From the IMG/VR virus record IMGVR_UViG_3300035547_000249: 64,000 bases of DNA, one strand, 5' to 3'. The number at the start of each line of letters is the position of its first letter. Positions within the stretch are counted from its first letter, which is position 1. Shown piece by piece: positions 1-62,174 of the stretch. Source of the DNA: a virus (taxonomy: Duplodnaviria > Heunggongvirae > Uroviricota > Caudoviricetes). The position numbers were made by a program, and so were the translations under genes. Below the pieces are notes generated by a model. That model made no database searches. It was not told the DNA's origin and saw only the letters and a list, made by a program, of their open reading frames with translations.

Positions 1-219
1 ATTATATTATAATCTACTTTGACATTATATTATAATCTACCTTGATTATATTATAATCTACTTTGACATTATATTATAATCTACCTTGATTATATTATAA
101 TCTACTTTGACATTATATTATAATCTACCTTGATTATATTATAATCTACTTTGACATTATATTATAATCTACTTTGACATTATATTATAATCTACCTTGA
201 TTATATTATAATCTACTTT
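1..219. repeat. Tandem direct repeats alternating a 23-bp unit (ATTATATTATAATCTACTTTGAC) and a 21-bp unit (ATTATATTATAATCTACCTTG), about 10 units
   Basis: Repeats read directly in the sequence. Each 23-bp unit contains TTGACA. The array ends just before an AAGGAG RBS and the ATG at 234. Confidence 0.9.
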
Positions 220-233
220 TAAGGAGAATAAAC

Positions 234-428
234 ATGTATTTCTTTGGTGACGACTATGAAGAGGAAGAATACTATACGTTGTTAGGTGTAAATCCCCATT
301 ATGGAGGATCATCCATAAAGGTTGAGGAACTAAAAGACCCTGAAATAACGCTCATATATAGTGATGGTATGAAAGAGACAATAGATTTAGTTCAAGAAAG
401 GAGCAAGGAAAATGTCGGAAAAGATTGA
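234..428 (+). CDS. hypothetical small acidic protein
   Basis: ORF with AAGGAG 7-8 nt upstream of the ATG; no recognisable motif. Confidence 0.4.
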   Translation: MYFFGDDYEEEEYYTLLGVNPHYGGSSIKVEELKDPEITLIYSDGMKETIDLVQERSKENVGKD

Positions 429-1155
429 TGTATCAAAACATAAAGTAATTATAGTAAACCATTCTAACGGTGTCAATGCACCTGTAGATATTGAGGGTAT
501 AATACTATATATATCTATTCTTAAAGATACCCCTACAGTTACAAGTAAACGTATAGTAACCCTTATAAACGAAGGGCAGATTGATAAAGTCATTACCTCT
601 CCATTTGTATCAAAAAGAATAAAACTTCATGTACGTTGGGGGAATGATACTAAGACAACATTTAAACCTTCTGATATTCTTATTAGAAGTAAGGTAGTAT
701 TATGTAATAATATATGGGGCAGTGATAGTGAAGACGATGACTGTCTCAAATATTCGATAGACGTCAGAGAATACCATGAACTAATGCCCTCTACTGCTTA
801 CATGGGAAATAAAATAGTATTACGTAGTTTATTCGATTACAAAGATCATATTGACAAAATAACTACCGGTTGGAGAAAAATTAATGGACCTAATGGGGAA
901 ATTAGCGAAGTCTGTTTTAGTGGAGATGTAACAATAGATACTGTAGAGGGAACAAGAAAACATAGTAAAAAATCCAGAATAGAAGAACTTTCCAATGAAT
1001 ATGGTAATTATAATGAAGTAATAGGAAGAGATTATAGTACAGTCGCATATAATACATTTTCAAGCAGTAATCCTTGTGGCGAGAGTTTTACAACCACTAT
1101 GTCTCATGAAATACCTACATATTTTTCATATACTATAGCAAACAATCAAGATTAG
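412..1155 (+). CDS. hypothetical protein (247 aa)
   Basis: Long ORF with AAGGAAA upstream; overlaps the end of the previous ORF; no motif recognised. Confidence 0.5.
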   Translation: MSEKIDVSKHKVIIVNHSNGVNAPVDIEGIILYISILKDTPTVTSKRIVTLINEGQIDKVITSPFVSKRIKLHVRWGNDTKTTFKPSDILIRSKVVLCNNIWGSDSEDDDCLKYSIDVREYHELMPSTAYMGNKIVLRSLFDYKDHIDKITTGWRKINGPNGEISEVCFSGDVTIDTVEGTRKHSKKSRIEELSNEYGNYNEVIGRDYSTVAYNTFSSSNPCGESFTTTMSHEIPTYFSYTIANNQD

Positions 1156-1427
1156 CCCTTAATAGCCCAGATTACCTAACAAAATTCCTTTTCCCGCGCA
1201 AAAAAGCCCACTTTCAGCAACAAAACACCTTAAACAGTTTATTTTTTTGATTGATTAAGCAACAAAATCACCTATATTACCCAAATATAGTATAAAACAA
1301 GTAGTATTAAGGTAAACCCCATATACCCCTCCTTTTCCCTAAATAACTAAAAAATAAGTATAAGTAGTATTAATACTGTATAATATACCAAAGTTCTTAT
1401 GGAGTTTGAACACTTATTGGAGTAATA

Positions 1428-1500
1428 GTATATTATATTATACTCTACTTTGACATTATATTATAATCTACTCTATAGTATATTATATTATACTCTACTA
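1428..1500. repeat. Partial copies of the 1-219 repeat unit (…CTACTTTGACATTATATTATAATCTAC…)
   Basis: Sequence identity to the unit of the first array. Confidence 0.7.
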
Positions 1501-1747
1501 TAGTATGAAGGTATCCGTATACGGACGGTTGTGTGCTGGAGCACTATTATATAGATACTATTTATGCTATGTGGGGTCGATGCTGGTTATGTGAGAGATT
1601 GATACTTCTTTATCATGGTTATATAATTATTACTACTATAGATTTCGAAAGAATTCGAAACAATTTCAATACGAATGAATTCGAGGTGAATTCGAGCCAC
1701 CCTTTATTGGTAAGGTTCTTGTGTTAAATAGTTAATAAATAATAAAT

Positions 1748-2215
1748 AAAGTAGTATTAATCTATACAATATCATAGTATTAATCTATACAATATCATAG
1801 TATTAATCTATACAGTATCATAGCATTAATCTATACAGTATCATAGCATTAATCTATACAGTATCATAGCATTAATCTATACAGTATCATAGCATTAATT
1901 GTATAAATAAAGTAGTATTAATCTATACAGTATCATAGCATTAATTAACACAGTATAGTAGTATTAATCTATACAGTATCGTAGTATTAATCTATACAGT
2001 ATCATAGTATTAATTGTATAAATAAAGTAGTATTAATCTATATAGTATCGCAGTATTAATCTATACAGTATCATAGTATTAATCCATACAGTATCATAGT
2101 ATTAATTGTATAAATATAGTAGTATTAATCCATACAGTATCATAGCATTAATCTATACAGTATCGTAGTATTAATCTATAAGCACCGTAGTATTAATCCC
2201 TATAGTATCATAGCA
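1748..2215. repeat. About 20 tandem copies of a 23-bp direct repeat (AGTATTAATCTATACAGTATCAT with variants); iteron-like array
   Basis: Read directly. The units are contiguous with no spacers. Punctuating variants such as AGCATTAATTGTATAAATAAAGT recur every 6-7 units. Confidence 0.9.
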
Positions 2216-2552
2216 CCAATTAAACCAATGACACAGTATCAATTAAGATAGTAGCGTATATCATTAAATCACAGAATTTGTTTGTTATGTTTGGATTGTA
2301 TAGTATATTATATTATGGGTGTTGATTATAGTATAATTGAATAGTATATTATATTATAATGTTATTATTGTTTGTTTATGGTGTTCTTGAAGGGTTTTTA
2401 TTATTGTTTGTTATATTATTGGTGTTTACATTAGAACAGTTGATATACTTGCTTCTTCAGACCTTGGGAAACGTTTATTCGCGCGGGCTGTAAAATTGTA
2501 TGTGTAGGTGTTACAGGTAGTGATAGTGGCGGTGTTGGTGAAAACCGCGTAT

Positions 2553-2591
2553 ACCAATGCTTTTGCGTGTGTTTTTTGTAAGAGCATTGGT
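2553..2591 (+). other. Stem-loop with a 9-bp perfect stem (ACCAATGCT/AGCATTGGT) and a 21-nt loop, inside a G/T-rich non-coding stretch
   Basis: Inverted repeat read directly; it sits in the 2240-2660 non-coding region upstream of the first gene of the array. Confidence 0.4.
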
Positions 2592-2675
2592 ATAAGCTGT
2601 TTTCTCTAAAATGGGTATAGTAGTATAGTAATTAAATAGTATTAAATAGCATTAAATACAAGGAGTTTTGATAAA

Positions 2676-3035
2676 ATGAGTAGTATGTATTCAATTAGAG
2701 AAATAAAAGAAAGTGCTATGGCTTATGCTAATGAGGATATAGATATTAAGGATACTTATATATATAATAGAAAAGTTTCTGTTTATAATTTTAAGCTTTT
2801 TTTGGATTCTTATATAATGACTAAAAGAAAACATGGGGCACATATCTTTCTCAGTGAAATTGGTTTAATGGTTGGAAAGACTTCTAATGCCGGCGAATTG
2901 ATTGATCATGCCATTTCATTTATATCACAAAGGATTAGTTGTGGAATGCCTTCGGTTGGAAACTATGATGATATAATAAAATGGTATCATGCATCTAAAG
3001 ATAGTACTGACAATAATATTAATAGTATATGGTGA
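2676..3035 (+). CDS. NS[IV]W-tail family, subfamily A (119 aa), ends …NNINSIW
   Basis: RBS AAGGAG. Shares an N-terminal S(I/P)REI(K/M)ESA(M/I)(A/S)YA…D(T/A)(Y/F)IYN…YDIG(I/V)LL(S/G)Y core with neighbouring genes. C-terminal N-S-I-W followed by TGA. Confidence 0.6.
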   Translation: MSSMYSIREIKESAMAYANEDIDIKDTYIYNRKVSVYNFKLFLDSYIMTKRKHGAHIFLSEIGLMVGKTSNAGELIDHAISFISQRISCGMPSVGNYDDIIKWYHASKDSTDNNINSIW

Positions 3036-3039
3036 TAAT

Positions 3040-3411
3040 ATGAGTTATCCAATTAGAGAAATAATGGAAAGTGCTATATCTTATGCTCATAGAGATATTA
3101 GAATAAGAGACACTTTTATATATAATAATGCTGTTACTTTTGCTAATCTTAAGATCTTTATTGATAATTATATAAGGGTTAGGAATGAAATAAGTAATAA
3201 GAAAGCTGAATTTTATGATATTGGTATTTTGCTAGGATATATTAGTAATGGTGAATTTATGCTTGGATCTGTTGTTTCATACTTATTAAAGAAACGTTCG
3301 AATGGGCTTATAATAAACGGAGAGCCAGAAGATACAAAAAAGGGTTTCTGTTTCTTGCGCAAGCTTACTTCTTCTTCAAGAAACCGTACAAAATTAAAAA
3401 GTATATGGTGA
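3040..3411 (+). CDS. NS[IV]W-tail family, subfamily A paralogue, ends …KLKSIW
   Basis: Start chosen at ATG 3040 (MSYPIREIMESAISYAH…), which parallels the previous gene's N-terminus. The tracked ORF from 2989 is the same frame extended upstream. Confidence 0.6.
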   Translation: MSYPIREIMESAISYAHRDIRIRDTFIYNNAVTFANLKIFIDNYIRVRNEISNKKAEFYDIGILLGYISNGEFMLGSVVSYLLKKRSNGLIINGEPEDTKKGFCFLRKLTSSSRNRTKLKSIW

Positions 3412-3415
3412 TAAT

Positions 3416-3820
3416 ATGGGAACATATAGCGGTATTATAGAAAGCAGTTGGTCAGGCATAAGAGGTTTTAAGGATGGCAAAAGATATGGCAGCAGACTTG
3501 TCCATATCGGTGAGACTTTTATATATAAAAAAGAAGTAACCAGACATGAGTTTAGAAGTTTCATGAATGGTTATGTTAATGCAAGATATAGAAATGAAGA
3601 TAACCGAGCCTCGTTTAATGATATAGGTGTTCTATTATCATATACTACTAATGGAAAAGCCTTGATTGAAGACATCATAATTTATGCAAAAATTTCATTT
3701 TGGATGAATGAAAAAGTGAGTGGTAATTATGGTGATATCAGGGCTGGCTTTAATATGGCGTCTAATAATATTAAAGAATATAAGGCTGAAGAAATAAACA
3801 AATTTAATAGTATATGGTGA
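3416..3820 (+). CDS. NS[IV]W-tail family, subfamily A paralogue, ends …KFNSIW
   Basis: Conserved F(I/L)Y…F…Y…(F/Y)(N/Y)DIGVLLSYTTNG core and C-terminal NSIW. Confidence 0.6.
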   Translation: MGTYSGIIESSWSGIRGFKDGKRYGSRLVHIGETFIYKKEVTRHEFRSFMNGYVNARYRNEDNRASFNDIGVLLSYTTNGKALIEDIIIYAKISFWMNEKVSGNYGDIRAGFNMASNNIKEYKAEEINKFNSIW

Positions 3821-3824
3821 TATT

Positions 3825-4211
3825 ATGAATTGCATATGGACAACAGGTAAGGCAGCTAACAATGGAAGAAATTATGCTTTAGGCAAGATTAGCTTAAAAG
3901 AAACCTATTTATTTAATAATACTGTCTCCACTAATTGTACTAGAATATTTATCAATAACTATGTATTTTACAGCAGCCACAAGAAAAAAGTATCATATTA
4001 TGATATAGGAATTCTTATTTCATATACCAAGAACAATCTAGAATTTGTTAACAGTGTTTATGTATATTTGAATAATAAATATACTAGAACTCCTAATCCT
4101 GTTATTCGTGATATGTTGATTGGTAAACTTGATGACTTCATAGATGGGTATAACAACAGCATTCAACATGGTTGTGGTTATAATACACCAGAAAGGGTGA
4201 ATAGTATATGA
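3825..4211 (+). CDS. NS[IV]W-tail family, subfamily A variant ending …RVNSI-stop (terminal Trp lost)
   Basis: Same core (YYDIGILISYTKNN) but the 3' end reads AATAGTATATGATAA instead of AATAGTATATGGTGA. It could equally be annotated as a decaying copy. Confidence 0.45.
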   Translation: MNCIWTTGKAANNGRNYALGKISLKETYLFNNTVSTNCTRIFINNYVFYSSHKKKVSYYDIGILISYTKNNLEFVNSVYVYLNNKYTRTPNPVIRDMLIGKLDDFIDGYNNSIQHGCGYNTPERVNSI

Positions 4212-4430
4212 TAAATTCAATGACGTCAGAGAAATGGTTTTGGATAATGGACTATTGTAAAAGAAAACATATTTCGCCCGCGAGAGAATGGGCATGGAGA
4301 GAAGCTGAAGAAGAATATGACAAAATAGTTAGAAAGAAAACTAATAAAAATAACAATATGAAAAGTGTGTGGTAAATACAAATGTTTTTATTTAATAGAC
4401 AATAAACACCAAAGAAAGGAAAAGAAAAAA

Positions 4431-5826: not shown

Positions 5827-6156
5827 ATGATACAGTTTTTATTTGCAACATTAGGTGCGTGGGTAATTTGGGTAATATATATCGTTATCAATACCCTGGC
5901 ATGGGCAATTTGTATGGAACACTGGGATGATATGATTTCTAACCTCGCAGATGAGGAAGAAATTGATGTCGGTGAATTTATTTTCGCGGCGGGCTCTTGG
6001 TTATTCTTTCCGATTATACTGGTAGTGATATTGTTTTGCAAAATATCGGTATTTATTATAAACCAAATCGTTGAGCCAGGTTTCAAAAAGTTCCTTAAGG
6101 CATTGCTGAAAATTATCCCAAAGTTTGAATTCAAAGTTAAATTTAAAGGAGATTAA
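5827..6156 (+). CDS. small membrane protein
   Basis: Three hydrophobic segments. Confidence 0.45.
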   Translation: MIQFLFATLGAWVIWVIYIVINTLAWAICMEHWDDMISNLADEEEIDVGEFIFAAGSWLFFPIILVVILFCKISVFIINQIVEPGFKKFLKALLKIIPKFEFKVKFKGD

Positions 6157-6322
6157 TACGGATTTTGAATCTGAGGTCACCAAAATTGTTGAAGAATACG
6201 GAGCACCTGAAGATATCACAAACGAAATAGTTGAATTTCTTATTAATAGTGGGAACATATATACTATTATAGAAATCGCAAAAGAAATGGATATCTAAGT
6301 AAAATTAAAAAGGAGTATTACC

Positions 6323-7039
6323 ATGAAGATAGGAATTACAGAGCGTGGAGATGCAGCATTGGATATGTCGTGGGTCAATAAGATGGATACTGTTGATGGG
6401 GCGATATTGATTACGAAAGCGGTGTCATCCAAAGAGTTTCAGAATGCTGTAAAAGAATTCAAAGACAAGGTTATTATCCATGCTACTATTACTGGTTATG
6501 GCGGTACTCCTATTGAACCAAATGTTCCAAGTCACGAAGAAACGATGGATAGTTTGTATGAACTAGAATCTTTTATGCCTGAGGGGCATGTTGTTCTTCG
6601 TATTGATCCTGTTATACCAAACGATGCTGGTAGAACTTGGATACCTTATTTGATAAACAAGTTGCCTACCTCAATCAAAAGAGTAAGATTTAGCATAATT
6701 GACAATTATAAACATCTTTCTGCGCGGGGGCTGGAATTGCCTTGGAAGACGTTCCATGCCCCACCTCAATTAATATCTAATGTTGTCAATGACTTTATGA
6801 AATTTTCACATACACATAGTATAGAATGCTGTGGTGAAGATCACCCATTAATACCAATGGTGTGGAAAAAAGGATGTATATCAGATTGGGATTTGATACT
6901 TCTTGGATTAGATTTCATGCAAGTTCCAAAAGTCACATCAAATCAACGTAAATCGTGCAGATGTTTGTCTGTAAAAACAGAATTATTAACCAGAAGAAAA
7001 CAATGCCGCCATGGCTGTTTATATTGTTATTGGAGATAA
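6323..7039 (+). CDS. Cys-rich putative Fe-S protein (DUF1848-like C-terminal CxC…CxxGCxYCY cluster)
   Basis: RBS AAGGAG; C-terminus …CRCLSV…CRHGCLYCYWR. The family assignment is from memory only. Confidence 0.35.
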   Translation: MKIGITERGDAALDMSWVNKMDTVDGAILITKAVSSKEFQNAVKEFKDKVIIHATITGYGGTPIEPNVPSHEETMDSLYELESFMPEGHVVLRIDPVIPNDAGRTWIPYLINKLPTSIKRVRFSIIDNYKHLSARGLELPWKTFHAPPQLISNVVNDFMKFSHTHSIECCGEDHPLIPMVWKKGCISDWDLILLGLDFMQVPKVTSNQRKSCRCLSVKTELLTRRKQCRHGCLYCYWR

Positions 7040-11046: not shown

Positions 11047-11244
11047 AGTGTCGGTAGCTCAAACGGATAGAGCGCACGTAAAACGGAACGTGTAAGGAGT
11101 AAAATCCGGCAATGAAACAATATTTTGTATGGTTGCAGAAGCACCGAACCTGCCAGTAAGGGCTTAGTAGGGAAGCGCGTTTCCAAGAAATATTGTACTT
11201 GGGAGTAATGCCCCAAGCAATTGCTTTGTGGGTTCGAGTCCCAC
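11047..11244 (+). tRNA. Non-canonical tRNA-like gene. It has a perfect 7-bp acceptor stem (GTGTCGG/CCGACAC), a D arm (GCTC-AAACGGATA-GAGC) and a T arm (GTGGG-TTCGAGT-CCCAC), but carries about 140 nt inserted between the anticodon-arm region and the T arm
   Basis: Base pairing read directly. The region is locally GC-rich (about 50%) against a 30% background. Two internal hairpins have 8-nt loops and no U33-like anticodon loop. No 3'-CCA is encoded. The anticodon is indeterminate. Confidence 0.5.
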
Positions 11245-11267
11245 CCGACACACAAATAACATAAGGA

Positions 11268-35619: not shown

Positions 35620-36549
35620 ATGTCAAAAAGAAAAATCATGATTGGAACAGATCCTGAGTATTTTATGGCTAGACGAGATTCTAAAAAATTGGTATCAGCC
35701 ATTCCGTTTATAAAAGGCGGTAAACATGACCCGATTAAATTACCGTCAGGAGCAAGCCTTCAATCAGATAATGTTGCAGTAGAATTTGCAACCCAACCTG
35801 CAAATGACAGCAAAGATTTCATTAATAAACTTAAGACGGCGTTGACAGAAACATATAAGTCAATTCCAGCAGGATACGATCTTATTGCTACACCGTCAGC
35901 CAAGTTTGATCCAGAAGAGCTAAAAGATCCCAAAGCATGTGAATTTGGATGTATGCCTGACTATTGTGCTTGGGAGATGAAAGTGAATGAACCTCCGATG
36001 CATGAAGATGCAACATTTAGATCCTGCGGTGGTCATATCCATGTAGGTTGTCTTGATGAAAATGGAGAATTAATTAGCGAAGACACTTCTTTCCTTCTGG
36101 AAGTAGAAGGAAAAGTAAAAATGGTAAAGGGAATGGATCTTTTCCATGGTATTATTTCTACAGTATTGGACAGTTCTCCTGAAGCTGTAGAAAGAAGAAC
36201 TCTTTATGGAAAGGCTGGATGCCATAGACCTACTGAATATGGCGTTGAATACAGAGCTCTAAGCAACTATTGGACTAAAACACCTTATTCTTCTATGCTT
36301 ATGTCAAGCCTGACAGATGATGTTATAGATGTAATTTTGACTGGAGAACTTGATGGGTTGATCGAAGAAGTTGGTTCCGAAGACATTAGAAGGATTATTA
36401 ACACAGGTAATGTCGAAGACGCCAAAGCAGTGATTGAAAAAGTTTTGTATAAATTTATGAGTAAAGACTCTAAATTTTATTTTGATGAGTGTATAGAAAA
36501 ACTTAACAAAGCAACAGACATGGCCAAAGAATGGTCAATTTCTATTTAA
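35620..36549 (+). CDS. amidoligase (glutamine-synthetase/GCS2-fold carboxylate-amine ligase), paralogue 1
   Basis: N-terminal strand …IGTDPEYFM… (G-x-D/E-x-E-x-F), a central …GGHIHVG… and a C-terminal …GVEYRAL… (E-x-R). This parallels the GCS2/YbdK motifs GxExE, HVHVG and E…R. RBS AGGAGA. Confidence 0.55.
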   Translation: MSKRKIMIGTDPEYFMARRDSKKLVSAIPFIKGGKHDPIKLPSGASLQSDNVAVEFATQPANDSKDFINKLKTALTETYKSIPAGYDLIATPSAKFDPEELKDPKACEFGCMPDYCAWEMKVNEPPMHEDATFRSCGGHIHVGCLDENGELISEDTSFLLEVEGKVKMVKGMDLFHGIISTVLDSSPEAVERRTLYGKAGCHRPTEYGVEYRALSNYWTKTPYSSMLMSSLTDDVIDVILTGELDGLIEEVGSEDIRRIINTGNVEDAKAVIEKVLYKFMSKDSKFYFDECIEKLNKATDMAKEWSISI

Positions 36550-36568: not shown

Positions 36569-37465
36569 ATGAATATTGCAGTTCCCACAAACAACGTAGC
36601 AGATAATACAGAAACGCCCAAAAGATCTCAGAACGCAGCATATTGTAAATATTTAAAGGCTGCCGGTCTGAACCCAATCCTTATTCCTATGGAAGCGGAT
36701 ACCAAAGATGTGGCCAAGATTTGTGACGGCTTACTGTTGGCAGGTGGGATTGATATTGATCCCATTTATTATGGTGTAAGTAATTCAATGTCAATGTCAG
36801 TAGACCCTGAAAAAGATGCTCATGAAAGACACCTGTTTCACAGTTTCAGAATGCTGAAGAAACCTGTGTTTGGTATTTGCAGAGGATTTCAGTTGATTGC
36901 AAGAGAGCTACTCTTCTATAATAAAGATGTAAATAGGTATATCTTCTACATGGAGAATATTGAAAGACATACACAAACTGGAGGGCTTAATGTTCCGAGA
37001 AGATTTCCCTCTCATATGGTGAAGTCAAACACAGGTTCATTGTACAGCGGTAAAGATGACAAGGATTTTACCATTCATCCGGTGAACAGTATGCATCATC
37101 AGGCTGTGTGTTTTATGTTTAATAAACTGGCAAAAGATGCAATTCAGGAAGAATACAAAAAGAAAGATTTCGATAAAGGAGAGCCTTCCGTAAGCAGATT
37201 TAAAATTGGAAAACTCGATATTGATATCGTTTCATGGACTATGAGGGGAGTTAAATATCCCAGCAATGTGTCCAAAGAGGCTCAATGGGCGATCGTAGAA
37301 GGAATTAAAATCGGTAATTGGGGCTCTAGTATTATGGGGGTCCAATGGCACCCAGAAGAAATGATGGACGTCTCTTTGGTGAGAAATTTCTTTGAAAACA
37401 ACAAAACAAAACCAAAGAATGATGAAAAGGTGAAACAAAATGAGAATGTCGCTGGAAACGGATGA
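36569..37465 (+). CDS. class-I glutamine amidotransferase-like / gamma-glutamyl hydrolase (peptidase C26) family protein
   Basis: Nucleophile elbow …GICRGFQL… and …VQWHPE… (His of the triad). RBS AAGGAG. Confidence 0.6.
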   Translation: MNIAVPTNNVADNTETPKRSQNAAYCKYLKAAGLNPILIPMEADTKDVAKICDGLLLAGGIDIDPIYYGVSNSMSMSVDPEKDAHERHLFHSFRMLKKPVFGICRGFQLIARELLFYNKDVNRYIFYMENIERHTQTGGLNVPRRFPSHMVKSNTGSLYSGKDDKDFTIHPVNSMHHQAVCFMFNKLAKDAIQEEYKKKDFDKGEPSVSRFKIGKLDIDIVSWTMRGVKYPSNVSKEAQWAIVEGIKIGNWGSSIMGVQWHPEEMMDVSLVRNFFENNKTKPKNDEKVKQNENVAGNG

Positions 37466-42688: not shown

Positions 42689-45600
42689 ATGGGCTTTGTG
42701 TCGGAAATGCAGAAGTTGGCGAATTTGGTAAAATCTCAATTTGAATCCAGAACAATCACTCAATCAAAAAGAACTGGACGAGATTTTAGAGATGTTTTAA
42801 TGACTAATAGTATTTCAAACAATATGCTAACCATAGAAGTAACTACAAACAACTCTAATCATGTTCTAACTATACCAGTACCGTACACTAAGAATAATGT
42901 AACACTAATTAAGAATAATGAAATAGAAAGAGCTGTTTGTAACTATTTTGATGTTAAAGCAGATAGAATTATTTCGTATACAGATATTATGTATGAAATA
43001 TTCATGGGAGATTTTTCTACTTTTGTTAAGGAAATAAAGAAAAAGAAAGTTGTTTTTGTACAACAACTTGCTTATTCTATTATTAATGATAATATATCAG
43101 TTATCATGTATAATCTTCAAAAGGCAATAAATGAAGTAGTAAATAAAATGCCTCTACATGAAACAGATATGTTGAGTTGGGTCATGAACAGTAGACTCAT
43201 GATGTTAGATTATGACTTTGATAAATTAAATGACCCAGAGCAAAAACTGTACTATCAGATAGATAAAAATAGAAAATACTTCAATAGGGGGTGGACATCT
43301 ATTGGATTATCAGACGGAACTCTCTCGGACAAGAATTATATTTTAACTGATAACATAAGAAAATACAGCCCCTTTGGATTAAAATATCATAACCCTCAAA
43401 GAAACCTTTACTCTACTTTATGTATGAAAGGAGACGAAGATCAAGCTATAAGAACTTGTTCTTATCAAGATCTTGTAGATAAAGGCACAAAGAGAAAGGG
43501 CTGGAATTGGTTTACTGCTTATGTTGATGTACCAGACACTTTTGAAGACCAAATATTGGTTAGCAAAAGACATTCAGATAAATATATTACGTCATACAGA
43601 AGAATTTTCTGTTATGGTGATGTTTTAGTAAAAGTCGGTCAACACATAAAGTTTGGGCAGAAATTATGTAAATCCATAGACGGAAAAGTAACAAGATATG
43701 AAATAAGAGCAGATAACTCTAAAGTTATTAATATAAAGTCAGAAAAAGTGGTAATAGGGGGAAAAGATAAACAGGCTTGGTCAATAAAGGTCAGACTGAG
43801 AAGAAATCTAAAGGATGCCACTAAAATAACCAATACCCATGGAAATAAAGGTGTAATCAGGCTGATGGACCTCGGTTACGCTATAGACCCTGTAACAGGT
43901 AAAAAGAGAGACATAGATGTAATTGTATCAGCTAAGACTATACCAAAAAGAGAGAATTTTGGTCAATTGTTAGAAGCCCTAACCAATGACATCATTGAAA
44001 GAACACACAAGAATAGAAAAGTACACCGTACCGGAAGTTCTTGGACTTCTTCAGATCAAAGTATTGGAGTAACACACAGGTGTGAACATGAGAGAAAACA
44101 TGTAGTGATCCAAGATGACTTTGATCCAGGAGTAGAAAACATAAAAAGAAACCTTACCTCTTTAGGTTTTAATGAAACCTTGAGTTGGAAATGCAATACC
44201 TATATAGGAGAAGTAAATGCCTGTTGTGGTAATGTTTTCTGGGGAGTATCAAAAGAAGCAGAGGATCAGTTGTGGGAAAAAGGAGATTCCCTTAGAAAGA
44301 ACAATCAGGACTTAAGGACTGCTGGATTAAAACTATCCACAGTAGAATTTAAAGCGCTTGAAACTAATTTCGGGAAAGATAATTCCATTATAAGAGAGGT
44401 GTTATCTCATACTCAGGGATCTGATATATTATCAGAAAAGATGAGAATAACCAAAAGTAAATTGGGAGAATTCCCATCAAACACTCCTGTTGTAGATATT
44501 AGGGACGTTAAAACAATAGATCAAACCAACGGCACCATGTTTGATGAATCAGAAATAGTAAACACTGTTGCAGATGAGAATTACTTCGAAAATGGGTTTT
44601 TAATAAGTCTCCCATTAAAATATCAGACAGCCGTTGGAGTAGATAAGTCCTTAGATCACGAAGGCGGTGTTGTTTTATATGAAGGAGGGTTTGACCCGGA
44701 GTTATACAAACACATATTCTTAACTGACAAAATATATGTACCATATGGTATACTAAGAAGGTGTTGGAGACATAGTTCAGGCATGTATGGCATGAACCCT
44801 ATAACAACACTTATTAATAATGTAGTGGTTATGGCAAACAAGTATATTAATGACCCAGAAGACCCAATTAATATTTCAATGTATTATATGGCTCTTAGAT
44901 CTTACTTTAATAGGGTATTAAAATCCTTAGTAGGAAAGTCTGGAGATATTAATAACTATGCTCTGTCAGTAAGATACCCGTTTTCTGCTAAAGCAGTAGC
45001 TACTTTAAGTAGTACTCTTCCTGATAACACAATACAAATACACAGAAACATGGCAGAAATATTGGGAGCCAATGAGGGAGATTTCTTGTTAGTAGAAAGA
45101 TTCCCGTGCTTGGGTTTCATGGGTGTAAGATCACAAAAAGTTACTATTACCGACGATCCTATGTGCAAATATACTATACGAGTGAGTGGTAATAGCTTGG
45201 TATCTCAAAACCTGGATTTTGATGGTGATGTTATATATGTAGCGTCGTTTAAGACAAAGGAAGCTAACTCTTTATTAAAGAAAGAATGGGAAAATCCTAA
45301 TCAAGCATATTGGAGGCATGTAGATTGGTTGAATAATAGAAAAGGTAAACCTACGGTCAATTGTTTCAATTTTGATGATTATAAAGTCAAAGCGTTTGAG
45401 GATTTAGACGCTAATAGCCATTCAGAGATAATAAGTAAATCTACTGGTGTAAAAGCGTTGACGGGTCCAATGATGGCAATGGCTTATAATTTGATGAGGA
45501 TAACAGAAACAGTAGGTGGTCAAGTAGATCAGTATATGCAAACGGACATAGAAATGTTCATTGAAAAAGCTGGTCAGTCTGTATTTGAACAGAAACATGG

Positions 45601-45967
45601 TGGAGTATCATTACACGAAATTGTAATAGATGCAATCTGTACTGGTAATGTGGAATTACTGGTTAAAAGCGGTTTCAACGAGAATGTATCAAGATTTATA
45701 TGTGACGTTATAAAGATGAAAGCATTATCTCTTGGTATAAAAGACCTATCTTCATACCATGCTAAATGTAAAGAGTTAGGATGTTCAAATATAGTAAACA
45801 AGATAGTAAAGAACGAAAATAAATTATATTTTGCCAGCAGATCTAATATTGATTTGATCAGTTTATTGAATACAATAAACATCCCTTCTGTGGATTTGCC
45901 TAGCAGGATATTCAAATTAACAACTTTCGATAAATTCGAACAAGGAGAAAATTATTATGGCTATTGA
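42689..45967 (+). CDS. single-chain two-barrel (multisubunit-type) RNA polymerase: a beta-like DPBB (…ITNTHGNKGVIRL…) followed by a beta-prime-like DPBB (…QNLDFDGDVIYVA…)
   Basis: HGNKGV matches the RpoB …RHGNKGV… lysine motif and DFDGD matches the RpoB' NADFDGD catalytic motif, both in one 1092-aa polypeptide in beta then beta-prime order. This is the YonO-like arrangement; RBS TGGAG. Confidence 0.65.
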   Translation: MGFVSEMQKLANLVKSQFESRTITQSKRTGRDFRDVLMTNSISNNMLTIEVTTNNSNHVLTIPVPYTKNNVTLIKNNEIERAVCNYFDVKADRIISYTDIMYEIFMGDFSTFVKEIKKKKVVFVQQLAYSIINDNISVIMYNLQKAINEVVNKMPLHETDMLSWVMNSRLMMLDYDFDKLNDPEQKLYYQIDKNRKYFNRGWTSIGLSDGTLSDKNYILTDNIRKYSPFGLKYHNPQRNLYSTLCMKGDEDQAIRTCSYQDLVDKGTKRKGWNWFTAYVDVPDTFEDQILVSKRHSDKYITSYRRIFCYGDVLVKVGQHIKFGQKLCKSIDGKVTRYEIRADNSKVINIKSEKVVIGGKDKQAWSIKVRLRRNLKDATKITNTHGNKGVIRLMDLGYAIDPVTGKKRDIDVIVSAKTIPKRENFGQLLEALTNDIIERTHKNRKVHRTGSSWTSSDQSIGVTHRCEHERKHVVIQDDFDPGVENIKRNLTSLGFNETLSWKCNTYIGEVNACCGNVFWGVSKEAEDQLWEKGDSLRKNNQDLRTAGLKLSTVEFKALETNFGKDNSIIREVLSHTQGSDILSEKMRITKSKLGEFPSNTPVVDIRDVKTIDQTNGTMFDESEIVNTVADENYFENGFLISLPLKYQTAVGVDKSLDHEGGVVLYEGGFDPELYKHIFLTDKIYVPYGILRRCWRHSSGMYGMNPITTLINNVVVMANKYINDPEDPINISMYYMALRSYFNRVLKSLVGKSGDINNYALSVRYPFSAKAVATLSSTLPDNTIQIHRNMAEILGANEGDFLLVERFPCLGFMGVRSQKVTITDDPMCKYTIRVSGNSLVSQNLDFDGDVIYVASFKTKEANSLLKKEWENPNQAYWRHVDWLNNRKGKPTVNCFNFDDYKVKAFEDLDANSHSEIISKSTGVKALTGPMMAMAYNLMRITETVGGQVDQYMQTDIEMFIEKAGQSVFEQKHGGVSLHEIVIDAICTGNVELLVKSGFNENVSRFICDVIKMKALSLGIKDLSSYHAKCKELGCSNIVNKIVKNENKLYFASRSNIDLISLLNTINIPSVDLPSRIFKLTTFDKFEQGENYYGY

Positions 45968-52609: not shown

Positions 52610-54565
52610 ATGTGTGGAATTATCGGTGTCTTAAATTATGGAAGTAATGAGGATGAAAACAGAGAATCAGCTCTATATCTTACATCCACTTTAGTAGAAT
52701 TTACAGAACCTCGTGGAAAAGACGCTACAGGGGTAGCAGCTCTTTTTGATGATGGTAACTTTGTCTGCCAAAAAGGTGCAATTAGTGCATCAAAGTTTGT
52801 TGCAAGGTTCGGAAAAGAACCTACAGACTTTAACGGTTTCTTATCTGTGCTTAGACTAAGAGAAGAACCACTTAGAACAGTAATTGGCCATTGCAGAAAG
52901 AAGTCTGTTGGCAGATCGGCCAATAATGCAAACAATCATCCAATTAAAGCTGGAAATATTGTTGGTGTTCATAACGGTACTTTAAAGAACGACGATATCA
53001 TCTTCGAAAAGCTAAAGTGCGCTAGGGACGGACAAGTTGATAGCGAAGCTATTTTCAGATTGTTCGATCATTACACCAAAAATGGTAAAGAACCTTTTAC
53101 CATGGAAATGGTAGAAGAAGTCATAAAAAGGCTTGAAGGCTCATTTAGTATTCTTACATTTAATGCCAACAATCCTAACCAAGTTATTGCGGCAAGGGAT
53201 CAGAGGCCGGCAGAATTTTGCTTTATTAAGCCCCTAAAGCTTATGTTGGTAGCATCAGAAAAGAAGTTTATTGAAAATTCAATTTGGAACTACAATAAAC
53301 TTGCGTATCATTTTAACATGAATGGGTTTATTCAGCTTAAATATGGAGACGTAGAATACTCTACGTTAAAAGATGACGGGGCTGCAATATTTTACTTAAA
53401 TAGAGAGATCAAAGAAGATACAAAAATAGAAGATCTCTATGAAGCCAAAGATATGCCAAAATCTGTAAATAGAATCTGGAAAACTCCAGTTCAAACATAC
53501 AACTATGGTAATACTTACGGCAATAATTATAGACAAAACAATTATGCAAACAGAAACAACACAAACACCACACAAACAAATGTGAATTCGAACGTTAATA
53601 CAAATAAAACCAATGTGAGCACTGATAAAAAAGAAGATTCGAATGATAAAGCTCCCACTGATTTTGTTGGAAGAGTTTGGAGTGCAACTATCCATAAATT
53701 TGTGAAAACTCAAAGCCCTGCTAGACCTGTACTTAATGTTGGAAAAAGCCATACTGTAGTAGATACCGAAAAAAAAGTAATTATGTCGTTGTCTGAGGCT
53801 GCAAAGGAGAATGAGGAAGACAATATTGTAACCACAGAAAATTTTTCTGATATTGACGAAACAAATTTAGAAGATAAATACAAAGAACTGACTGTATCAG
53901 GAAAGTCGGTGGAAAATTGTAAAGATAGTTGTTTCGTTCCAATTTCTTCTATAGAGGCCGTAAGATCAAATAACAGCAAAGTAACAGAAGAAAAAGAAGA
54001 GAGGGAAGAAGAAAATATCCTGCCAAAAAAAGGACAAAACGTACTTTTATTAGAGCATATAAAAAAAGGAGCAAAAAAGGGCAAAGACACTATGTCGGAT
54101 GAGATGAATTTACACAAAGAGTCTAATGAGGCTCTATCTGAATTTGAAAAATTTGAGACAGCAGATGAAGTAGCTGAGTTGTGTAACACAGACAGAAATA
54201 GTTTGGAATCTTTACCTGTCCAATTTCTAGCTAATAGAGTAGTTAGACATGTGTTCAATAAGATATTTGCACTTGGTTGGCTCTCTAAGAAAAAAGATGT
54301 GTATGATTCTGGCATAAACAGCCATAAATACATTATTGCACTGAAAAACGTAGCTTATGCTCTTGATAAGCTAATAGAACATAGATCTGGAGCTCCAATT
54401 GATCACAATGATGTTAAGAAAGTGATAAATGAACTAGGTATATGTAATAAAACAGAAATGGAGCATATTAGTTCGTTATTCAGTAAGGGTGATTTATTAA
54501 ACAATAAAAACATAAAACATATAGTAAATCATTATATTCAAAGCGTCTCAGAAAATGAACGTTAG
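52610..54565 (+). CDS. class-II (Ntn) glutamine amidotransferase domain (MCGIIG…) plus a roughly 400-aa low-complexity/unknown C-terminal extension
   Basis: N-terminal 250 aa parallels the previous gene (…NHPIKAGNIVGVHNGTLKND…). Its 28-nt leader, including the RBS, is identical to that of 51704. Confidence 0.55.
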   Translation: MCGIIGVLNYGSNEDENRESALYLTSTLVEFTEPRGKDATGVAALFDDGNFVCQKGAISASKFVARFGKEPTDFNGFLSVLRLREEPLRTVIGHCRKKSVGRSANNANNHPIKAGNIVGVHNGTLKNDDIIFEKLKCARDGQVDSEAIFRLFDHYTKNGKEPFTMEMVEEVIKRLEGSFSILTFNANNPNQVIAARDQRPAEFCFIKPLKLMLVASEKKFIENSIWNYNKLAYHFNMNGFIQLKYGDVEYSTLKDDGAAIFYLNREIKEDTKIEDLYEAKDMPKSVNRIWKTPVQTYNYGNTYGNNYRQNNYANRNNTNTTQTNVNSNVNTNKTNVSTDKKEDSNDKAPTDFVGRVWSATIHKFVKTQSPARPVLNVGKSHTVVDTEKKVIMSLSEAAKENEEDNIVTTENFSDIDETNLEDKYKELTVSGKSVENCKDSCFVPISSIEAVRSNNSKVTEEKEEREEENILPKKGQNVLLLEHIKKGAKKGKDTMSDEMNLHKESNEALSEFEKFETADEVAELCNTDRNSLESLPVQFLANRVVRHVFNKIFALGWLSKKKDVYDSGINSHKYIIALKNVAYALDKLIEHRSGAPIDHNDVKKVINELGICNKTEMEHISSLFSKGDLLNNKNIKHIVNHYIQSVSENER

Positions 54566-54610
54566 AATGGTGGAAATTAATTGCTAAAATTTAGGAGATG
54601 ATCTACCAAA

Positions 54611-55897
54611 ATGGGAAAATTGTTATTAGTTGTGTCTGATAAAATGGACACGAACAAAAAACCTGATCGGGAGGAAAATATCTTGATCAGGTTGCCGAAA
54701 AAAGCGAGAGAAAGTGTAAATCTCCCTTTAATAAATCTGGGTGTAGGTAAACCAAGATTAAAGGTGTTTGAAGCTTTCTCTCAAGATATAAAATCTGTAA
54801 TTAACAAAGGTATTTGTGACAAAGAAACCATTGGCAACGTAGCTTTTGTTACATCAACTACTTTTAAGAAAGTATTTCCTAATTCTAACGACACATTTGG
54901 GGAAATAAATTACCTTAAAACAACAGATACAGATGAAGTAAATATAACAATAGGTGCCGATCCTGAATTTTTGTTATTTAACGATGAAGGAAATGTCATA
55001 AGAGCAAACAATATTATGGCCAAAGGCGGAAAAATAGGCTCTGATGGAGCAATGGCTGAAGTTAGACCAGATCCATCAGATGACCCTGTCGTGGTATCAA
55101 ATAATATATCAGATATCTTCTCCAATACAGAGCTAATTAAGCCAATTGAAAACTTTATCTGGAAAGCTTCTGTATATTTTAAGGATGTTCAAAGAGACTA
55201 TCCAGTTGGAGGACACATACATCTTGGAAACACTCAATTTGTTGATGGTATTCCTATGCCTACCAGAAACATTTTGTTTTCTACAATGAATAAAATTCTT
55301 GATGAACTTTTGGCGCTTCCTATGATTAAGATAGACGGTAAAGATGAGGGGAAGAACAGAAGGTCAAATTGTCAAATGGCGTTGGGAAATCAGGGCTATG
55401 GATATTATGGAGAATGGAGAATGTGTTCTGGCAGATTAGAGCATAGAACTCTTAGCGGCTTGTGGTTAATGCATCCAACGATTGCGTCTGGTGTATTAGC
55501 AGCTGCAAAAACTATAACAGAGGAGGCTCATAGATTTCTTCTTAGTGGTGGTTATAATCCTAAATTATTTACACACCGCGAGGTTAATACCAAGAATTAC
55601 AGGATTATGTATAACGATGAGTTTGATGGTTGGTCATCAATACCATTGGCCAAAGAAATGGGATGCATTAAATCATCTTCATACATGAAAAACGTACTTA
55701 ATAACTCTACATCTTCATCCATAAATGCCAAATTTTTAAAGAGTTGGTATAACAAGATGAAAAACATGGCTGGTTATAAAAAGTACCCTGATCAGATAGA
55801 TGCTTTACATGAAATATTGTCTATGCCCAGAAAAGAAGTAGTCAAGGTTGGTATGGATATTAAGGAAAACTGGTTAAACAAAAAAGAATTATTATAA
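54611..55897 (+). CDS. amidoligase (GS/GCS2-fold), paralogue 4
   Basis: …ITIGADPEFLLF…, …GGHIHLG…, …RLEHRTLSGLW…. Confidence 0.55.
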   Translation: MGKLLLVVSDKMDTNKKPDREENILIRLPKKARESVNLPLINLGVGKPRLKVFEAFSQDIKSVINKGICDKETIGNVAFVTSTTFKKVFPNSNDTFGEINYLKTTDTDEVNITIGADPEFLLFNDEGNVIRANNIMAKGGKIGSDGAMAEVRPDPSDDPVVVSNNISDIFSNTELIKPIENFIWKASVYFKDVQRDYPVGGHIHLGNTQFVDGIPMPTRNILFSTMNKILDELLALPMIKIDGKDEGKNRRSNCQMALGNQGYGYYGEWRMCSGRLEHRTLSGLWLMHPTIASGVLAAAKTITEEAHRFLLSGGYNPKLFTHREVNTKNYRIMYNDEFDGWSSIPLAKEMGCIKSSSYMKNVLNNSTSSSINAKFLKSWYNKMKNMAGYKKYPDQIDALHEILSMPRKEVVKVGMDIKENWLNKKELL

Positions 55898-55920
55898 CAC
55901 AACAAAAAGGAAATAAAAAG

Positions 55921-61349: not shown

Positions 61350-62170
61350 AATCAAAAATGGTTTTTGTGGAGGGTTTGGGAGTTGGTAGTAACAAGAACT
61401 GATATCGTGTGACGTTTTACGGTATTAGTCTTTATATAGTGTGTTAAGTTTCATAATAAAGACATTAAAAAGTATCATCAAATATACTTCTTGGCTCATG
61501 CCAATAAAATGGAGTATGATGAAGAACATAATGTAAATTATTATGTAAAACAGCTTCAAAGCATATACCAGGTGTTGATGCAACAATGTTTAATGTTTAT
61601 CCGGCTAGGAATTATTCTTTAGTTCGCGGGGTGGATTGGATTATATCGCTCCGATATAATTTAATGAAAACTGCGTGGGTCTTGAAATTGAACATTGTGA
61701 AATATGGTTCGAATCCATTTTGAAGTAAAATAATACACACAAAGAGGAATAGCGGTCATCCTGTTATTCCTCAAAAGTATCTCACATCTAATTTTATAAT
61801 CAATAGCCTACACCGAAAGATCTCGCAAACGAGTAGCACTATGTGAAAGTAACCGACATCGAATAAGTAAAAGTGCGTTATTATACTAGTTAGAGAGAGC
61901 TTAAGAACGAGTGGGTAGGTGGGTGGGAAAGTGCCGTTGTATGAGATATTATACATTCGGCACAAAAGACCTCTACATAGGGTAGAGTGATTATACATAC
62001 ATTACTTCTCCTTTTAAAGTGTATGGGTAGGATGCTTTTCACGATTTAGTATCCTACCAAAAGATAAAAAAATGGGGCCACAACATAAAAACAATCAAAA
62101 ATACTGTTTATGGGAGTTATAATGTTGTCTCCCTTAAAGGCCCCAACAAAAATATAAAATGTAGGAGTGG
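61350..62170 (+). other. 820-bp non-coding, highly structured region (several strong hairpins and a T-loop-like GGTTCGAATCC); candidate ncRNA or regulatory hub
   Basis: No ORF with an RBS. Perfect stems include AGGAATA/TATTCCT (61749-61775), GGTAGGAT/ATCCTACC (62018-62050) and nested GGGGCC…GGGAG/CTCCC…GGCCCC (62075-62150). Confidence 0.45.
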
Positions 62171-62174
62171 TATT

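Follow-up and report, generated by a model that had tools for sequence, protein, structure and literature searches.

A repeat-rich non-coding hub conserved with an orphan gene pair in a lineage of uncultivated large phages

We found that 1.5 kb of a phage genome, at positions 1156-2675 of a 64-kb window (the whole stretch of DNA analysed, 64,000 nucleotides), is free of genes and rich in repeats. The repeats of this hub are non-random, and the hub is conserved as a module together with a pair of adjoining genes. Its architecture suggests a cis-acting nucleoprotein region that is most likely an iteron-type, transcription-activated origin of replication. We hold this reading tentatively, and control of early genes is nearly as likely. 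To our knowledge, almost no replication origins or early control regions have been mapped in uncultivated huge phages, most of whose early genes are orphans. The hub is a concrete conserved cis element composed of a 10-nt core, a 23-bp phase, a second type of box, a promoter and an orphan gene pair. If it is an origin, it would anchor marker-frequency analysis and the construction of minimal replicons in this lineage; if it is a regulatory switch, the module would introduce a new family of DNA-binding or polymerase-binding proteins.

Architecture of the hub

The hub is by far the largest non-coding gap in the 64-kb window, the runner-up being 451 nt. The genes around it are densely packed on one strand, and from the hub on all genes are oriented rightward for more than 60 kb. 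The first-pass annotation had proposed a non-coding hub of this size, and each class of repeat that it listed was found at or near the positions it gave and well above chance. All three of the tandem-repeat arrays that it counted are present, but there are further classes, namely ATAGTATATTATATTAT, which occurs four times (1425, 1475, 2300 and 2341), and a mini-array at 2625-2658. The one ORF within the hub (1533-1727), which had been suspected to be spurious, is not kept as an ORF in the closest relative, L137, and this supports the suspicion.

Array D (1752..2215, + strand) consists of 20 spacer-less 23-bp iterons, each TAGYATTAAT followed by CTATACAGTATCA, and degenerate units continue to about 2256. 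TRF delimited the array at 1752-2213 with a period of 23, 20.1 copies and 83% matches, in agreement with the roughly 20 iterons annotated at 1748-2215. The register is exact but for one 1-nt deletion. Over the 20 units, positions 1-10 (TAGYATTAAT) are 96% identical versus 80% for positions 11-23. The core TAGYATTAA is matched 26 times in the 64 kb where 3.9 matches are expected, and 23 of the 26 lie inside the hub. Array D therefore has the helically phased direct repeats of about 17-23 bp, in at least three copies, that define iterons, and an AT-rich region of the kind expected at an iteron origin adjoins it at 1722-1751. Between strains array D is the most variable segment (83% identity with the strain variant L016); it turns over fast while the core is retained.

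A second array, array A (1..219, + strand), precedes the gene pair. It is built of ATTATATTATAATCTAC(Y)TTG(AC) units, at least 10 of them head to tail, which are 23 and 21 nt long in alternation and all contain TATAAT. On its left the array runs past position 1 of the window, and on its right it stops 3 nt short of the first gene's ribosome-binding site. An identical JGI contig, L001, begins one unit (43 nt) farther upstream and is still in array A there. The ATTATATTATAATCTAC unit reappears with 0-1 mismatch at 1434-1448, 1457-1471 and 1484-1498, where partial copies of the 1-219 repeat had been noticed (1428-1500). Allowing up to 2 mismatches, we found 19 matches in the window versus 1.0 expected, all within 1-2358. 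In the segment 1425..1500 (+ strand) the three array-A units are interleaved with two ATAGTATATTATATTATA units (1425-1442 and 1475-1492). A metagenome scan with the array-A unit gave 0 matches.

Several single elements lie between the genes and array D. Conserved non-coding block 1 (1151..1271, + strand) is C/A-rich, contains CCCGCGC at 1193-1199 and is 88% identical to L137. It is followed by an isolated iteron core, AAGTAGTATTAAGG (1299..1312, + strand), which is kept in L137, and by a second isolated core at 1365-1373. A perfect 12-bp palindrome, TCCGTATACGGA, was read from the sequence at 1513..1524 and is also present in L137. The block at 1596..1646 (+ strand) carries a sigma-70-like promoter with TTGATA at 1599-1604, a 17-nt spacer and TATAAT at 1622-1627. 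This promoter matches 11 of 12 consensus positions and is aimed at the TCGA boxes, the AT-rich stretch and the 23-bp array; 46 of the 49 positions of its block that align with L137 are identical. A sigma-70 scan of the whole hub was not above chance (26 sites versus 24 expected).

Just downstream of the promoter is a cluster of TCGA boxes (1643..1696, no strand assigned) made up of TTTCGAAA, ATTCGAAA, ACGAAT and two copies of GAATTCGAG, spaced by 10-11 nt. The motif cluster annotated at about 1640-1700 is real: GAATTCGA occurs three times at 1651-1695 and TTCGAA twice at 1644-1659. TCGA is present 4 times in 66 nt versus 0.09 expected (P ~2e-6), the densest such cluster in the window. Conserved block 3 (1700..1751, + strand) ends in the AT-rich TTAAATAGTTAATAAATAATAAATAAAG at 1722-1751, which abuts array D and is a candidate DNA-unwinding region. 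This stretch is A/T at 28 of its 30 positions and identical in L137, which is weak evidence alone in a genome of 30% GC. Block 3 together with the first iteron core (1700-1761) matches L137 at 53 of 55 aligned positions.

On the other side of array D is a G/T-rich flank (2240..2620, + strand) with two copies each of ATAGTATATTATATTAT (2300 and 2341) and TTATTATTGTTTGTT (2362 and 2398). Within it GCGCGGG (2481-2487) mirrors the CCCGCGC of block 1. Both the G/T-rich stretch and its hairpin had been annotated, but the hairpin stem is larger than the 9 bp proposed: a perfect 11-bp stem pairs 2551-2561 with 2583-2593 within 30-nt arms that are 83% complementary. L016 has one additional copy of a 37-nt repeat in this flank and is too close to the window phage (98-99%) for measuring selection on it. 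The mini-array (2625..2658, + strand) contains three iteron cores, ATAGTATTAA, ATAGTATTAA and ATAGCATTAA, at 10-nt spacing, and stops 3 nt short of AAGGAG, the ribosome-binding site of the gene that follows (ATG at 2676). Downstream of the hub come first (2676..4375, + strand) four translationally coupled, paralogous small genes with NS[IV]W ends and a fifth that ends in SVW. Two relatives, L137 and L140, likewise have small SIW-ending genes flanking the module, and a word-based protein search with the NSIW paralogs returned only the window phage and its strain variant.

The composition of the two flanks differs. At 1156-1340 the GC skew is -0.53 and the AT skew +0.12, which confirms the C/A-rich stretch annotated at 1160-1340, and at 2240-2620 the values are +0.46 and -0.24. 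The proposed switch in strand composition holds for these short non-coding flanks (left, 185 nt; right, 381 nt) but is local. We found no genome-scale inversion of GC skew or gene orientation at the hub: GC skew is +0.2 all along 2.7-64 kb, and the L137 genes upstream of the module have a skew of +0.21 and the orientation of the window genes downstream of it. When the flanks were compared as inverted copies of one another, they had in common only AT-rich repeat units and the 7-nt GC motif, and no long inverted repeats joining them were found. The DnaA box TTWTNCACA was found 13 times in the window versus 13.5 expected, and 0 times in the hub. Among GenBank phages, none resembled the region in DNA comparisons in near and distant modes or by its neighbouring proteins.

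Conservation of the module and its gene pair

The two genes left of the hub form an operon. The first (234..428, + strand) encodes 64 aa with the motif LIYSxGMKxTIxLxQE, which is kept in relatives. The second (412..1155, + strand) is an orphan whose 247-aa product is conserved over its N-terminal ~125 aa and variable in its C-terminal half. A word-based protein search with the 247-aa protein returned only the window phage and the strain variant. IMG/VR scans with this protein, a polymerase subunit, the 23-bp unit and block 3 gave no matches, nor did a scan of assembled genome contigs for the 247-aa family. Word-based searching was insufficient here, and the relatives were found by an exhaustive phmmer search for the family.

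Five distant relatives, all uncultivated large phages of a small lineage, carry the module of small gene, 247-aa orphan, TCGAAA boxes and 23-bp array elements. In L137 the 247-aa protein is 53% identical and the homolog of the 64-aa protein, with 68 aa, is 51% identical. The non-coding blocks are 88%, 94% and 96% identical between the two phages versus 62% for the DNA of the best-conserved part of the gene. In L139 the LIYSxGMKxTIxLxQE motif is found, by eye and with no alignment, at the C-terminus of an upstream 107-aa protein.

The repeats of the hub recur in these phages. Clusters of TCGA boxes at 10-nt spacing are present in the window and, with NTCGAAA as the box, in L137, L138, L139 and L091. 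Both the core TAGTATTAAT and the 23-bp period are retained in L137 and L091, and the other 13 nt are phage-specific. L140 has a related core (GTAGTATTTAT) with a 23-bp period and carries GCGCGCGGG to the right of its array; in L139 a lone iteron core lies close to the end of the contig. The operon is bracketed in each phage by a repeat unit specific to that phage, and at the position corresponding to 1425-1500 L137 carries its own unit. L091 was chosen from metagenomes solely by two phased cores and proved to encode a homolog of the 247-aa protein (pairwise E = 2e-11) beside its array. The exhaustive search added four more family members, and every one of their contigs has TCGAAA boxes, iteron arrays or both beside the gene. 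The general idea of a functional, cis-acting, protein-binding hub is strongly supported by this conservation in relatives; the binding itself, the identity of the binder and the origin function are inferred.

The contigs of the relatives (n=5) are 1.1-4.5 kb long, and 4 of the 5 end in or beside repeats. Arrays of this kind systematically break short-read assemblies of these phages, so a contig that stops at such a hub should not be taken to reach the end of the genome. Phased cores were also matched elsewhere (7 times in IMG/VR and more than 120 times in metagenomes), nearly always as single chance matches or in unrelated arrays. L012 (a 24-bp array on a 189-kb viral contig), L109, L023 and L133 encode no family member and were set aside as unrelated, as was L107, a small plasmid-like contig with phased cores that likewise encodes none.

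The 247-aa protein is a candidate trans-acting partner of the hub. Its N-terminal domain may be an SH3/Tudor/KOW-like barrel, an assignment of low confidence from weak SH3-like fold matches (Z <= 6.2). A single-sequence AF2 model of the whole protein was unusable (pLDDT 30), and searches for Pfam, PDB and Rep matches returned none. As regards a cognate initiator next to the iterons, all relatives have the conserved gene pair in linkage with the array, and the fold matches are weak.

Possible origin function or early-gene control

If the hub is an origin, a sequence-specific protein would bind to TAGTATTAAT, the invariant 10-nt core, at intervals of 23 bp (about 2.2 helical turns). This protein could come from the host or from the phage itself, in which case the adjacent 247-aa protein is the obvious candidate. 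With 20 phased sites occupied, the DNA would be wrapped or stiffened into a higher-order complex. The promoter at 1599-1627 would fire into the array, and the AT-rich stretch between them would melt. The TCGAAA boxes would be the operator for a second regulator that gates promoter firing or melting. The same core-binding protein, acting at the isolated cores (1302 and 1365) and the mini-array, would also control the operons on either side, the early SIW-type genes among them.

Contiguous 22-bp iterons form the origin core of plasmids R6K and pPS10, and the origins of lambda, T7 and T4 depend on transcription. The hub resembles iteron origins (R6K, pPS10, RK2, F, P1, lambda ori, SaPI and PLE) in its head-to-tail repeats of 22-23 bp, or about two helical turns, in which a conserved recognition part is joined to less constrained sequence. 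It further shares with them an adjoining AT-rich stretch, a nearby promoter, a small gene set linked to the repeats and extra single sites at neighbouring promoters. In the Vibrio satellite PLE, a 2.7-kb non-coding region with four kinds of repeat is the origin and is bound by RepA (PMC7145576). The hub differs from iteron origins in having 20 copies versus 3-9, in lacking a recognisable winged-helix or RepA_N initiator and DnaA boxes, and in that the only modelled domain of the linked protein is SH3-like.

An origin remains our best single guess on architecture, namely the spacer-less 23-bp direct repeats in which a 10-nt half is invariant, the AT-rich stretch and the conserved promoter reading into it, in the sole large gene-free region of the 64 kb. 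The support from skew, however, is only local. We found no recognisable initiator near the hub, and the modelled domain of the 247-aa protein is, with weak support, SH3/Tudor/KOW-like and not the winged-helix fold of iteron-binding Rep proteins. A Pfam search of 20 further window proteins (6-43 kb) revealed no replication gene, initiator, partition protein or terminase; the nearest replication gene is a helicase at 47 kb. Twenty iterons are many for an origin and are more typical of copy-control, maintenance or centromere-like arrays. Cores and an array A that abut ribosome-binding sites fit control of transcription or translation at least as well.

The hub may instead be a control region for transcription of early genes, which we regard as possible though somewhat doubtful. 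The arrays would be operators, enhancer-like sites or tandem weak promoters for a phage-specific regulator or for the phage's own RNA polymerase or sigma-like factor, would determine when and how strongly the 64/247-aa operon and the SIW-type early genes are expressed, and the TCGAAA boxes would be a second operator on the conserved sigma-70-like promoter. Array A, with its TATAAT units, and the 3-core mini-array each stop 3 nt short of a ribosome-binding site (of genes 234 and 2676), the mid-hub promoter is conserved, and the phage encodes a multisubunit-type RNA polymerase subunit and a sigma-70 region-2-like protein. The phage-specific repeat bracketing the operon is also as expected of co-evolving regulator/operator pairs. 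However, the core motif is essentially absent elsewhere in the 64 kb, which argues against a general promoter, sigma-70 sites show no excess over the hub, a 460-bp array is unusually large as an operator, and promoters have no need of a strict 23-bp phase over 20 units and across phages. It is unlikely that the hub lies at or next to a physical end of the genome, or that it governs the entry or packaging of DNA as a T5-type stop signal or terminase-binding pac repeats, with genes 234-1155 as pre-early genes. All five assemblies that include the first genes begin within array A or after it, and the rightward run of genes from the hub would suit such an end. In T5, untranslated regions of 1.2 kb and 0.6 kb after the pre-early genes are packed with repeats (direct repeats, one in nine copies, inverted repeats and palindromes) and are more conserved than the adjoining ORFs (bioRxiv 10.1101/866236). 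The hub shows the same pattern and is likewise a kilobase-scale gene-free region after the first few genes. But the T5 injection stop signal has paired DnaA boxes and large inverted repeats in a 10-kb terminal repeat, and neither was found at the hub. Every contig end falls in a perfect tandem repeat, which short-read assemblers are unable to cross, and Logan contigs also break at 233, 1781 and 2135 within the locus; these ends are consistent with breaks in the assembly and are no sign of a terminus. JGI contigs read through array D, L137 has about 3 kb of co-oriented genes upstream of its operon without a break, and no terminase was seen among the proteins scanned. The physical terminus that the first-pass annotation had offered as an option therefore has no positive support.

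Still less probable is that the hub acts as RNA, perhaps as a sponge or decoy for protein, by being transcribed from 1599-1627 into a non-coding RNA of about 950 nt with 20 tandem 23-nt repeats that ends at the hairpin at 2551-2593. The conserved promoter aimed into the array, the strong hairpin followed by a U-rich tract, the lack of a conserved ORF between them and mildly negative folding z-scores (-2.55 for 2230-2675 and -1.88 for 1156-1750) are in keeping with this. Against it, Rfam gave no match at the gathering threshold or E <= 1 (1-3000), or at E <= 0.05 (whole window), and a scan for intrinsic terminators found none. L016 also has an uncompensated change in the hairpin stem, and constraint on only 10 of 23 nt per unit is better suited to a DNA-binding site than to RNA structure. 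A centromere-like or genome-positioning array, in which a binding protein would coat the 20 repeats and hold, segregate or localise the genome, seems very unlikely to us. Its models are ParR on parC, TubR on tubC and EBNA1 on the family of repeats (20 x 30 bp) of EBV oriP. Twenty head-to-tail sites, phased at close to two helical turns, are the hallmark of centromere-like arrays, and array D has these features and adjoins a small conserved gene pair. Like the maintenance arrays of R1 parC, pSK41 parC, tubC and EBV oriP, it offers many phased tandem sites for one higher-order complex, and the EBV array has the same 20 copies. Unlike partition arrays, it has no ParA, ParM or TubZ-type NTPase beside it in the window or the relatives, and there is no sign of a plasmid-like lifestyle.

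A likeness to phage phi29

In phi29, the binding of protein p6 has a 24-bp period; p6 wraps the DNA of the origin and governs replication as well as the early and late promoters. The hub has a similar layout, with a 23-bp periodic array next to TCGAAA boxes at 10-nt spacing. However, p6 recognises bendability whereas the hub has a conserved 10-nt core, and the origins of phi29 sit at protein-primed genome ends. The 0A boxes of phi29 (TGTCGAA) are clustered 10 bp apart by its origins and early promoters, and through them host Spo0A shuts the phage down (PMC2731898).

It is conceivable, but again very improbable, that the module is a new three-layer phage control system. The 247-aa protein on the 23-bp phased array would form a superhelical complex, phi29-p6-like or centromere-like, that switches on replication and early transcription. 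Its N-terminal domain would read TAGTATTAAT or RNA polymerase, its variable C-terminal half would read the phage-specific operon-bracketing repeats, and the TCGAAA boxes would be imperfect 0A boxes for Spo0A-type silencing by the host in sporulating cells. Such silencing, if true, would point to a dormancy or spore-entrapment strategy for a huge phage. Perfect TGTCGAA occurs only in the box clusters of L138 and L139, and most boxes are 1-3 positions off the 0A consensus.

Repeat elements of the non-coding hub

By a rough gene call, non-coding DNA totals only 3.6 kb of the 64 kb, and the largest gap by far is the repeat-rich hub at 1156-2675, broken only by a doubtful ORF (1533-1727). The runner-up is a 451-nt gene-free stretch at 61724-62174 with GC-rich hairpins, which may encode RNA and has no Rfam match. 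We found that the hub described in the first-pass annotation is real, was well described and goes beyond chance. The gene ending at 1155 is followed by a C/A-rich stretch (1156-1340, GC skew -0.53), three further copies of ATTATATTATAATCTAC, the unit of the tandem repeats at 1-219 (array A), lie at 1434-1498, and the GAATTCGA motifs cluster with TTCGAA at 1643-1696. TCGA occurs four times in 66 nt (0.09 expected), the densest such cluster of the window. The G/T-rich stretch at 2240-2620 (GC skew +0.46, AT skew -0.24) is also present; its hairpin, previously credited with a 9-bp stem, has a stem of 11 perfectly matched base pairs (2551-2561 with 2583-2593). The three tandem-repeat arrays were confirmed, and to these we add another class of repeat, ATAGTATATTATATTAT, present twice on either side of the 23-bp array. 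A GC-rich motif is mirrored between the flanks, as CCCGCGC at 1193 and GCGCGGG at 2481; no other site in the hub contains CGCGC. Neither DnaA boxes nor an Rfam match was found for the hub.

The array of about 20 iterons of 23 bp was recovered by Tandem Repeats Finder as 20.1 copies at 1752-2213. When 20 units were put in register, positions 1-10, TAG(T/C)ATTAAT, were 96% identical and the remaining 13 positions 80% identical. This 10-nt core occurs 26 times in the 64 kb, where 3.9 are expected, and 23 of these occurrences fall in the hub. They include isolated cores at 1302 and 1365 and, at 2625-2658, a mini-array of cores spaced by 10 nt that stops 3 nt short of the ribosome-binding site of the first gene downstream. 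With 20 copies at a fixed 23-bp phase, the 10-nt core would be recognised by a protein and would nucleate a higher-order complex.

A 98-99% identical strain (Logan SRR11801594) has a different order of units in its 23-bp array, carries one additional 37-nt ATAGTATATTATATTAT-type copy at ~2340 of the window, and lacks two small genes at 5827-6341. Directly downstream of the hub, the small paralogous genes ending in NSIW share one 3' DNA junction, AATAGTATATGGTGATAATATG (3020-3045, 3395-3420, 3805-3830 and 4195-4215). Besides NSIW and the stop codon, this junction specifies the next gene's ribosome-binding site and start, so conservation of the NSIW C-terminus may stem from translational coupling or from a DNA/RNA signal instead of from protein function. 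ATAGTATAT is common to the junction and the hub repeat ATAGTATATTATATTAT.

Conservation of the module in distant relatives

Word-based searches with the 247-aa orphan protein, encoded at 412-1155 between array A and the hub, and with the NSIW paralogs detected no homolog beyond this phage and its 98-99% identical strain. A metagenome scan for two iteron cores 23 bp apart gave more than 120 matches, nearly all due to chance. One match, a contig of 1,150 nt (L091), carries a gene for a 245-aa protein homologous to the orphan protein (32% identical in the N-terminal 105 residues; pairwise E = 2e-11), and ~215 nt past this gene is a AATAGTATTAATATTAGTAGCAT array of 23-bp period, cut off by the contig end. 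With phmmer, an exhaustive search through 1.84 billion representative proteins added four family members, on contigs L137-L140, with 53%, 37%, 33% and 30% identity. In these four contigs a small gene with the motif LIYSxGMKxTIxLxQE precedes the family gene, NTCGAAA boxes are clustered, often at exact 10-nt spacing, and a 23-bp array is present where the contig extends far enough.

The iteron unit is TAGTATTAAT followed by CTATACAGTATCA in the window, by TATAGAAGTGTTG in L137 and by ATTAGTAGCATAA in L091; L140 has ~12-15 units of GTAGTATTTATTATAGTAGTACT, and L139 a single GTAGTATTAAT close to its contig end. The core and the period are thus kept across phages whose linked proteins share only 30-53% identity, and the rest of the unit is homogenised inside each phage but different between phages. 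The L140 contig spans an entire hub of ~900 nt, with GCGCGCGGG, one TAGTATTAAT and then small genes, one with a KSIW end, to the right of the array, a layout that matches that of the window. L140 also has a counterpart of the GCGCGGG motif. In both L137 and L140 the module is flanked by SIW-ending genes.

In a segmental comparison of the window and L137, DNA identity was 70% in the small gene, 62% in the conserved N-terminal portion of the family gene and 49% in its C-terminal portion. Three non-coding blocks reached 88% (1151-1275; the block proper is 1151-1271), 94% (1596-1646) and 96% (1700-1761), and the hub segments between them could not be aligned. L137 also keeps the CCCGCGC motif and shares with the window a 12-bp palindrome, TCCGTATACGGA, at 1513-1524. 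The second block is the best + strand sigma-70-type promoter match mid-hub (TTGATA, 17-nt spacer, TATAAT; 1599-1627), which faces the TCGA boxes, then a conserved AT-rich stretch (1722-1751) and then the array. In place of the array-A-type units (1425-1500), L137 carries a unit of its own, TGTTATGATATATCA, also found upstream of its operon, and L139 likewise has a phage-specific unit either side of the operon. ORF 1533-1727, already suspected to be spurious, has in common with L137 only the residues translated from the promoter block; start, stop and length differ, and we too regard it as spurious. By this test of conservation the hub is functional, and the comparison shows a lineage-specific module, the gene pair with at least five kinds of cis elements, under purifying selection. 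The kind of feature, an iteron-type cis-acting hub, is ordinary; its sequence family and the linked orphan proteins are new.

The orphan family has a conserved N-terminal domain of ~125 residues, with invariant positions that include D6, N16, P24, G29, L32, R75, W76, N78, D79, C98, I101, W102 and L124, and a variable C-terminal half that is probably disordered. The predicted fold of the N-terminal domain is not that of classical iteron-binding initiators, at a confidence too low to exclude DNA binding or to assign a role.

Two genes of L137 stand out upstream of its module (343-1311 and 2397-2810): one product resembles a single-strand DNA-binding protein and has a tail rich in Gly, Gln and Asn, and the sole - strand gene, with an N-terminus resembling GIY-YIG homing endonucleases, looks inserted. 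A small contig fetched by chance (Ga0222628_1003745, 4,278 nt) has overlapping ends, looks like a plasmid and carries 23-bp units, ATAGTATTAATATTGGTACTATC, with the identical 10-nt core. Several of its small proteins resemble helix-turn-helix regulators, and it encodes no homolog of the 247-aa family.

Possible roles of the hub

A switch in strand composition had been taken as a sign of an origin. This failed at genome scale: cumulative GC skew climbs steadily from ~2.2 kb to 64 kb. The + strand holds 48 of the 49 ORFs of at least 150 aa, the sole - strand ORF (53710-54333) is nested within a longer + strand ORF, and gene orientation does not switch at the hub. GC skew is +0.21 in the 2.4 kb of + strand genes that precede the operon in L137, just as it is in the window genes beyond the hub; the asymmetry thus belongs to two short non-coding flanks and is not a replication-type skew inversion.

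An origin remains plausible from the layout. Classical origins have a promoter, an AT-rich stretch and phased iterons, in that order, with a linked gene set. Because the hub shows this arrangement, we tentatively rank first an iteron-type, transcription-activated replication origin. The origin of the Vibrio PLE satellite, in a non-coding region with multiple repeats, is a documented precedent (PMC7145576). A control region for early genes is nearly as likely, though still doubtful: iteron cores and array A directly abut ribosome-binding sites, and the operon is bracketed by each phage's own repeats. Much less probable is a role in packaging, as a genome terminus or in T5-like control of injection. 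The repeat regions of T5 are strikingly alike in general anatomy (bioRxiv 10.1101/866236), but nothing positive supports such a role, and the contig ends look like repeat-induced assembly breaks that carry no information on physical termini. This is because a JGI contig of the same phage, identical across 11 kb, begins one repeat unit further upstream, inside array A, and the k-mer-based Logan contigs break at 233, 1781 and 2135, the points at which repeats are too perfect to be crossed; the 23-bp array, which is more diverged, is bridged in the JGI assemblies. The terminus proposed earlier is unsupported. A repeat-bearing non-coding RNA, ranked fourth, is unlikely, and a centromere-like array is the least probable reading. 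Among 30 other window proteins scanned we found no initiator, partition NTPase or terminase, and the array-A unit had no match in the metagenome collection scan.

In phi29, 0A boxes adjoin a p6 nucleoprotein complex of 24-bp period; here a 23-bp array lies beside TCGAAA boxes. The TCGAAA boxes resemble imperfect Spo0A 0A boxes, TGTCGAA, which in phi29 shut the phage down in sporulating hosts (PMC2731898).

Genome setting

The GC content of the window is 30%. Its genes include one for a multisubunit-type RNA polymerase subunit (42689-45967), which has over 400 homologs on metagenomic contigs as long as 330 kb, and others for a helicase, RNA-repair enzymes and a sigma-70 region-2-like protein. 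Neither GenBank phages nor IMG/VR contigs include a close relative, and the window therefore belongs to a large phage that has not been cultivated.

A tRNA-like gene (11048-11253, + strand) is split by an insert of ~110 nt and was missed by default ARAGORN and by Rfam. With introns allowed, ARAGORN reports a tRNA whose acceptor and T arms are well formed and which has a 110-nt intron and a long extra arm; the anticodon assigned, Asn(att), is doubtful. What looks like a tRNA gene cluster begins ~1 kb beyond the window end (contig L007, 12270-12590 and 13450-13480), and all three Logan contigs shown break, at their end, within tRNA-like sequence. Several COOH-NH2 ligase, glutamine amidotransferase, ATP-grasp and acetyltransferase genes lie at 35620-36549, 36569-37465, 52610-57054 and 62509-63261. 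An 18-kb metagenomic contig fetched by chance (L078) has distant homologs (21-34% identity) of seven of these window genes, which suggests that a peptide or amino-acid ligation gene set is conserved in large phages.
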